From Antedon mediterranea (lineage: Eukaryota > Animalia > Echinodermata), in NCBI RefSeq assembly GCF_964355755.1, contig NC_092671.1, positions 32,064,304-32,128,303 of the forward strand: a stretch of 64,000 bases of DNA. The letters run 5' to 3'. A model generated the notes under the pieces. The model was not told the DNA's origin. It searched no databases and was given only the letters and a program-made list of their open reading frames with translations. This document shows positions 7,850 through 7,891 of the stretch, piece by piece. Positions within the stretch are counted from its first letter, which is position 1. Every line of letters begins with the position of its first letter. A program made the translations under genes and the position numbers.

Positions 7850-7891
<42 letters not shown>
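7850..7891 (+). other. 42-bp exact copy of the 28S R2-target/helix-69 segment in IGS1
   Basis: AGCGCGGGTAAACGGCGGGAGTAACTATGACTCTCTTAAGGT, identical to uninserted 28S; flanks are non-rRNA. Confidence 0.97.

Follow-up and report, generated by a model that had tools for sequence, protein, structure and literature searches.

Why does every intergenic spacer in this ribosomal DNA array carry an exact piece of the 28S gene that stops at the R2 cleavage site? The piece could be a decoy held by selection or a by-product of R2 activity. The window, meaning the whole 64,000-nucleotide stretch of Antedon mediterranea DNA analysed here, is an 18S-5.8S-28S tandem array with seven LSU matches (Rfam). A preliminary description of this sequence proposed a decoy.

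An exact R2 target copy in each spacer

In the window, the 42-mer has 12 exact matches on the plus strand, and none is found in 100 shuffles. Six are spacer copies (Table 1) and six are intact 28S sites, which start at 16004, 25633, 34666, 44374, 54078 and 63731. The spacer copies form a single sequence (6/6), as do the intact genic sites (6/6). The preliminary description placed an exact target copy in every spacer, about 240 bp past the end of the 28S gene. Both points hold, as all six spacers contain the copy with no variant and no insertion, and the measured distance is 231 or 240 bases. This distance is set by a tandem 9-mer that is present in 7 or 8 copies. The copy lies approximately 1.4 kb downstream of the genic R2 site with no element attached, and 15 bases separate it from a run of 26 or 27 T residues.

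The identity with 28S extends from -41 to +1 around the first-strand nick of R2, and leftward of -41 there are zero further matching bases. These limits enclose the upstream motif (-34 to -22) and the nick motif (-6 to +1), in agreement with the earlier claim that both R2 recognition motifs are inside the fragment. A hairpin, which we take to be helix 69 of 28S, also lies within the copy (7866-7884). The next longest word common to the spacer and the rRNA is 12 bases, in a comparison of the third spacer with both strands of unit 4. For a random rRNA fragment, the probability of an end no more than 2 bases from the nick is approximately 0.001-0.002. Because such an endpoint is improbable by chance, a connection between the spacer copy and R2 is well supported on sequence grounds, and the proposal that the limits are tied to R2 rather than to a random rRNA fragment stands.

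Table 1. Positions of the R2 element, the spacer copies and the neighbouring spacer features in the window
Feature	Position	Strand	Remarks
5'-truncated R2 in 28S of unit 1	4166..6492	+	RT and endonuclease motifs; open frame 4167-6167
Possible second, older target relic	7705..7720	+	23/3000 shuffles, post hoc
Tandem array of a 9-mer, with 7 or 8 copies in each unit	7727..7798	+	upstream of left flank
Unique left flank	7799..7849	+	identical in 6/6 units
Exact copy of 28S -41..+1, spacer 1	7850..7891	+	exact match
Scar-like right flank, like genic +1..+9, then nick-end 7-mer again	7892..7906	+	alignment, post hoc
T26 run; the spacer has no earlier or longer T run	7907..7932	+	candidate Pol I release element
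Exact copy of 28S -41..+1, spacer 2	17332..17373	+	exact match
Exact copy of 28S -41..+1, spacer 3	27022..27063	+	exact match
Exact copy of 28S -41..+1, spacer 4	36064..36105	+	exact match
Exact copy of 28S -41..+1, spacer 5	45772..45813	+	exact match
Exact copy of 28S -41..+1, spacer 6	55476..55517	+	exact match

The resident R2 and the predicted behaviour of the copy

The same array contains an R2, as had been noted. Its frame is open for 666 codons up to the stop, and 28S positions -5 to -1 are deleted at the insertion. R2 occupies 1/7 genic sites and 0/6 spacer copies, counts that are too small to discriminate between the two. The last nine bases of the R2 3' UTR (6484-6492) equal 28S +15 to +23, so the end of the element copies downstream target sequence non-tandemly. 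Unit 2, which adjoins the R2-bearing unit, has a 60-base deletion in 18S (11037) and a 61-base deletion in 28S (16856) relative to unit 4. It is likely a defective unit, or the deletions are an assembly error.

The unit 1 R2 matches solved vertebrate R2 structures at 498-512 bits. The next entries, presumably B. mori R2, score 261-269 bits. Among longer proteins, the R2 protein has 69 matches. Three zinc-finger-like motifs are present in 12/12 of the best full-length relatives; among the 24 relatives examined, 21 have three, two have two and one has five. Judged by these motifs, the relatives of the unit 1 R2 are lineage A, which has three N-terminal zinc fingers. The rules of lineage A are the best guide to this element, by proxy, because its best relatives have three zinc fingers. 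Three of the relatives (P0026, P0031 and P0037) bear source names, among them phosphodiesterase 3B and ribonuclease H, that apparently reflect mis-annotation or gene-model fusions. A scan of viral contigs with the R2 protein gives three candidates, none of which is confirmed, and the Atlas gives RT clusters only. A metagenome scan with the 28S 3'-end motif gives two matches, both of which are chance matches outside rDNA.

The rules for binding, nicking and priming come from the R2 elements of other species, as set out in passages of the papers cited here. In B. mori R2, nicking is set by an upstream motif, RUM (-34 to -22), and four bases of RASIN (-6 to +1), and positions +6 to +37 are dispensable (PMC10499050). 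In lineage A, the N-terminal domains bind upstream only, with ZF3-2 requiring -40 to -21 (PMC11204384), and one protein of this lineage is still attached upstream once both nicks are made (PMC12180492). Avian lineage-A priming requires four paired bases directly after the nick (PMC11371274).

The first-nick determinants given in those passages (-34 to -22 and -40 to -21; PMC10499050, PMC11204384) are all inside the copy. Under the B. mori rule, nick-motif bases -6, -5, -3 and +1 and their spacing to the upstream motif are those of the genic site. The copy thus shares the upstream determinants and spacing of the canonical target as these passages describe it (PMC10499050, PMC11204384, PMC12180492) but departs from it from +2 onward. 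Only one of the four post-nick bases pairs with the R2 RNA tail in register and three pair after a 1-base slip, short of the four described for avian lineage A (PMC11371274). The copy is predicted to bind a lineage-A R2 and could be nicked by it, but would prime poorly. Poor priming, with one of four bases paired in register, would account for the lack of insertions in the copy and for its stability.

Flanks, uniformity and age of the copy

The flanks had been described as unrelated to 28S. This is true of the left flank, where 50 bases have no 28S likeness (p 0.10-0.86) and the copy has a clean left edge. It is not true of the right flank, which resembles 28S +1 to +9. After one extra base, 7892-7898 aligns with genic +1 to +9 at 7/9 positions with one 2-base gap; this post hoc alignment score is equalled by 1/400 shuffles and 3/400 random strings. 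The nick-end 7-mer at 7886-7892 recurs at 7898-7904, within 13 bases (p approximately 0.003, also post hoc), and the two tests overlap by one base. The right flank looks like a repair scar, with indels at the nick and a duplication, as far as its sequence can indicate. The left flank has no likeness to the part of R2 that is present in the window.

Two other derivations from R2 were rejected. The left flank read as antisense R2 coding sequence has a best E of 0.29, and the 9-mer array compared with the R2 3' UTR gives an 8-base match (E 6.3). The 9-mer array may have other copy numbers in the public runs X5-X8, according to depth ratios. Upstream of the array, at 7705-7720, a target 6-mer (-16 to -11) adjoins an 8-mer (-37 to -30) in permuted order. 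The 8-mer (7713-7720) also occurs in the copy and presumably resembles the yeast Reb1 word. This segment is a possible older relic or terminator-protein site.

Downstream of the copy, the T26 run may act as a Pol I release element. On the minus strand, 7907-7952 reads as poly(A) with a word like a polyadenylation signal 5-9 bases before it, which may come from a 3' end retro-captured in antisense, or just from low complexity. The folding of six segments gives no unusual structure (z -0.25 to 1.03). Between 8150 and 10540 there are 4-6 copies of a subrepeat of approximately 200 bases with pentamer microsatellites between them, and a diverged last copy precedes the external spacer. These subrepeats are probable duplicates of a promoter or enhancer.

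Across the six units, there are 0 variable columns in 117 and 0 in 50 flanking bases. In the 450 bases before 18S there are four. The exactness of the copy is not proof of selection, because its flanks are equally uniform.

Twenty public runs were found, none of them from RNA, and four of these (X5-X8) were aligned on the upstream spacer (7610-7846); eleven runs with a share of 0.10 contribute no evidence. In X8, the adjacent spacer has 3/147 differences (approximately 2%), and one contig of 6931 bases ends at 7756. When three units are simulated as a k=31 graph, an exact copy yields contigs of 5636 and 1293 bases and no exact copy yields one of 6911 bases. Most units of X8 likely have no exact copy, whether it is missing, altered or confined to a minority; this comparison covers one run with no positive control, takes colinearity from length and is open to assembly clean-up hiding a minority copy. 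Since the length of the X8 contig is close to that simulated with no copy, the copy looks young or labile. Youth alone suffices to explain its exactness.

In X5 and X7, the contigs are not long enough to show whether the copy is present. X6 is another sample under the same organism label. In this run, 7806-7846 is covered as deeply as 7610-7714, and 11 unseen letters lie beyond. With this left flank at full depth, the segment probably occurs in more than one animal. Coverage at 7794-7846 is absent in X5, X7 and X8 and has two short holes in X6; such holes can result from a filter and are given no weight. X7, X8 and X9 each contain 7/21 sampled words, a share that is far more compatible with the lack of all flank and junction words (P 0.10-0.26) than with the presence of every word (P <2e-5); it is a hint only, as the sampling scheme is uncertain and 3-5 words are missing even from runs of the same sample. 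X1, which may be the source sample, contains 21/21 sampled words of the stretch.

Origin and meaning of the copy

The reading to which we give slightly better than even weight is that R2 cutting produced the spacer copy as a by-product, that the copy is young and not under selection, and that concerted evolution spread it. R2 would stay bound on approximately 40 bases upstream of the nick and would protect that DNA end. During repair, this end may then have been joined into the spacer, either itself or as a copy that extends a few bases beyond the nick. Imprecise repair of the nick could have left the extra base, the 2-base gap and the short duplication, and unequal crossover and conversion may have fixed the variant. 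We infer this capture route from the limits and flanks of the copy. Its evidence is the nick endpoint, which is improbable by chance, the lack of any other rRNA word longer than 12 bases in the spacer tested, and a right flank built of target-like pieces. Added bases with 28S identity also occur at R2 junctions, for example in the sea squirt, according to passages of PMC3774820. Limits that match the R2 footprint are expected from neutral capture of a protected end as well as from selection. As a counterpoint, the absence of change in 42 bases, when the adjoining 15 carry two indels and a duplication, also fits a selected site that binds R2 without accepting insertions.

A different and rather unlikely R2 origin is a fossil 5' junction. 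Here a full-length R2 cDNA with a 28S leader would have inserted in the spacer, and the element would later have been deleted except for its leader and a small number of bases from the junction. The identity does end at the nick, and in passages of PMC3774820 a 28S leader is often kept on R2 RNAs and duplications of upstream 28S are common at 5' junctions. R1 insertions outside 28S likewise carry 7-28 bases of upstream 28S (passages of PMC2718515). However, the leaders given in the same part of PMC3774820 are 9-36 bases and mostly 28, whereas the copy starts at -41, outside that range, with a clean left edge. The right flank is like 28S +1 to +9 and not foreign, and the flanks match neither the R2 3' part in the window nor the 69 R2 proteins (best E 0.22; the R2 5' end is absent from the window). 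The preliminary description had listed a fossil R2 5' junction spread by concerted evolution as an alternative. The part of it that survives best is an R2 by-product spread by concerted evolution; the junction form is less supported, as the leader is too long.

Selection for a decoy, the proposal of the preliminary description, is rather unlikely. A single half-site per unit would bind R2 and be nicked but prime poorly, and would either halve the occupancy of the true 28S sites by R2 or shift nicks into dispensable spacer. The sequence has the form this requires, with the first-nick determinants described in the cited passages all in the copy and only the primer-pairing bases altered, and the ratio of copies to genic sites is 1:1. 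In D. ananassae, the spacer copy of the R1 site is among the non-28S insertion sites, with one R1A and seven R1B insertions in such units (passages of PMC2718515). Against selection, the copy is no better conserved than its flanks (0 variable columns in both), and the exact copy appears absent in X8. Insertions or variants number 0/6 in spacer copies against 1/7 at genic sites, too few to count either way. R2 nonetheless entered a 28S gene of the array, and a twofold dilution would be a weak defence.

A role in ending rRNA transcription is less probable still. The copy would be a co-opted Pol I terminator in which the helix-69 hairpin, or a word for a Myb protein, acts together with the T26 run. 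Between the end of the hairpin and the first long T run there are 22 bases, and the 8-mer of the copy that repeats at 7713-7720 has the presumed likeness to the Reb1 word. In yeast, as passages of Nielsen and Zenkin 2025 (PMC12366685) describe it, termination combines a roadblock with a T-rich tract and with a hairpin that lies approximately 20 bases upstream of the RNA end and whose sequence is irrelevant. A hairpin before the first long T run is common to both systems, but the T-rich tract in yeast directly follows the hairpin, and the smallest hairpin tested in those passages has nine stable pairs. The hairpin here is weak (6 pairs, -6.2 kcal/mol, z approximately 0), lies 22 bases from the T run and has no identified roadblock site. 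A terminator also leaves the limits at -41 and +1 unexplained, and X8 apparently manages without the exact copy. Capture of a chance rRNA fragment unconnected to R2, or an assembly artefact, is very unlikely: repeated arrays can be mis-assembled, and Pokey and homing endonucleases act on the same few 28S bases, but the endpoint lies within 2 bases of the nick (probability approximately 0.001-0.002), all six units have the copy yet differ in repeat number and deletions, X1 contains 21/21 words (it may be the source sample) and X6 has the left flank.

Short 28S pieces in other invertebrate spacers, which had been anticipated, have a precedent. The D. ananassae IGS has a 22-base piece of the R1 target (Stage and Eickbush 2009, PMC2718515, in part). 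It is likewise a short 28S piece of an R-element site in an rDNA spacer. Unlike the present copy, it belongs to R1, is 22 bases long, spans the site and has insertions; here the element is R2, the copy is 42 bases, the post-nick half is altered and 0/6 are occupied. Fixation in all units, 6/6 here, is not stated for the R1 copy in those passages. The R2 5' junction duplications in Eickbush, Burke and Eickbush 2013 (PMC3774820, in part) also consist of upstream 28S to the nick and added target-like bases. They are at R2 within 28S and mostly 13-28 bases, in contrast to 41-42 bases in a spacer with no element. In one butterfly, R2 insertions are not confined to 28S (passages of PMC10257491). Literature searches covering listings and selected passages, mostly of papers outside subscription journals, found no description of an R2-site copy fixed in the IGS, and none appears in passages of PMC10946416, PMC10257491, PMC13580325, PMC13188248 and PMC13486585.

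The present evidence favours a young by-product of R2. Even if neutral, the copy would be a natural R2-target mutant, one to one with the genic site, that is predicted to separate binding and nicking from priming. It is relevant to the site choice of R2 and to R2-based gene insertion. A broader and unlikely reading is that insertion-resistant R2 half-sites, one in each unit, have arisen repeatedly in animal rDNA as a cis-encoded defence in the target locus. In that case, nicking of the half-sites by lineage-A R2 without priming may produce harmless spacer breaks, with less inactivation of 28S and maybe copy-number recombination. Selection, if present, would make the copy a defence of the host that the rDNA itself encodes, and the copy would then bear on the persistence of R2 and on the nick-driven upkeep of rDNA copy number, a question raised in passages of PMC13580325 and PMC10946416.
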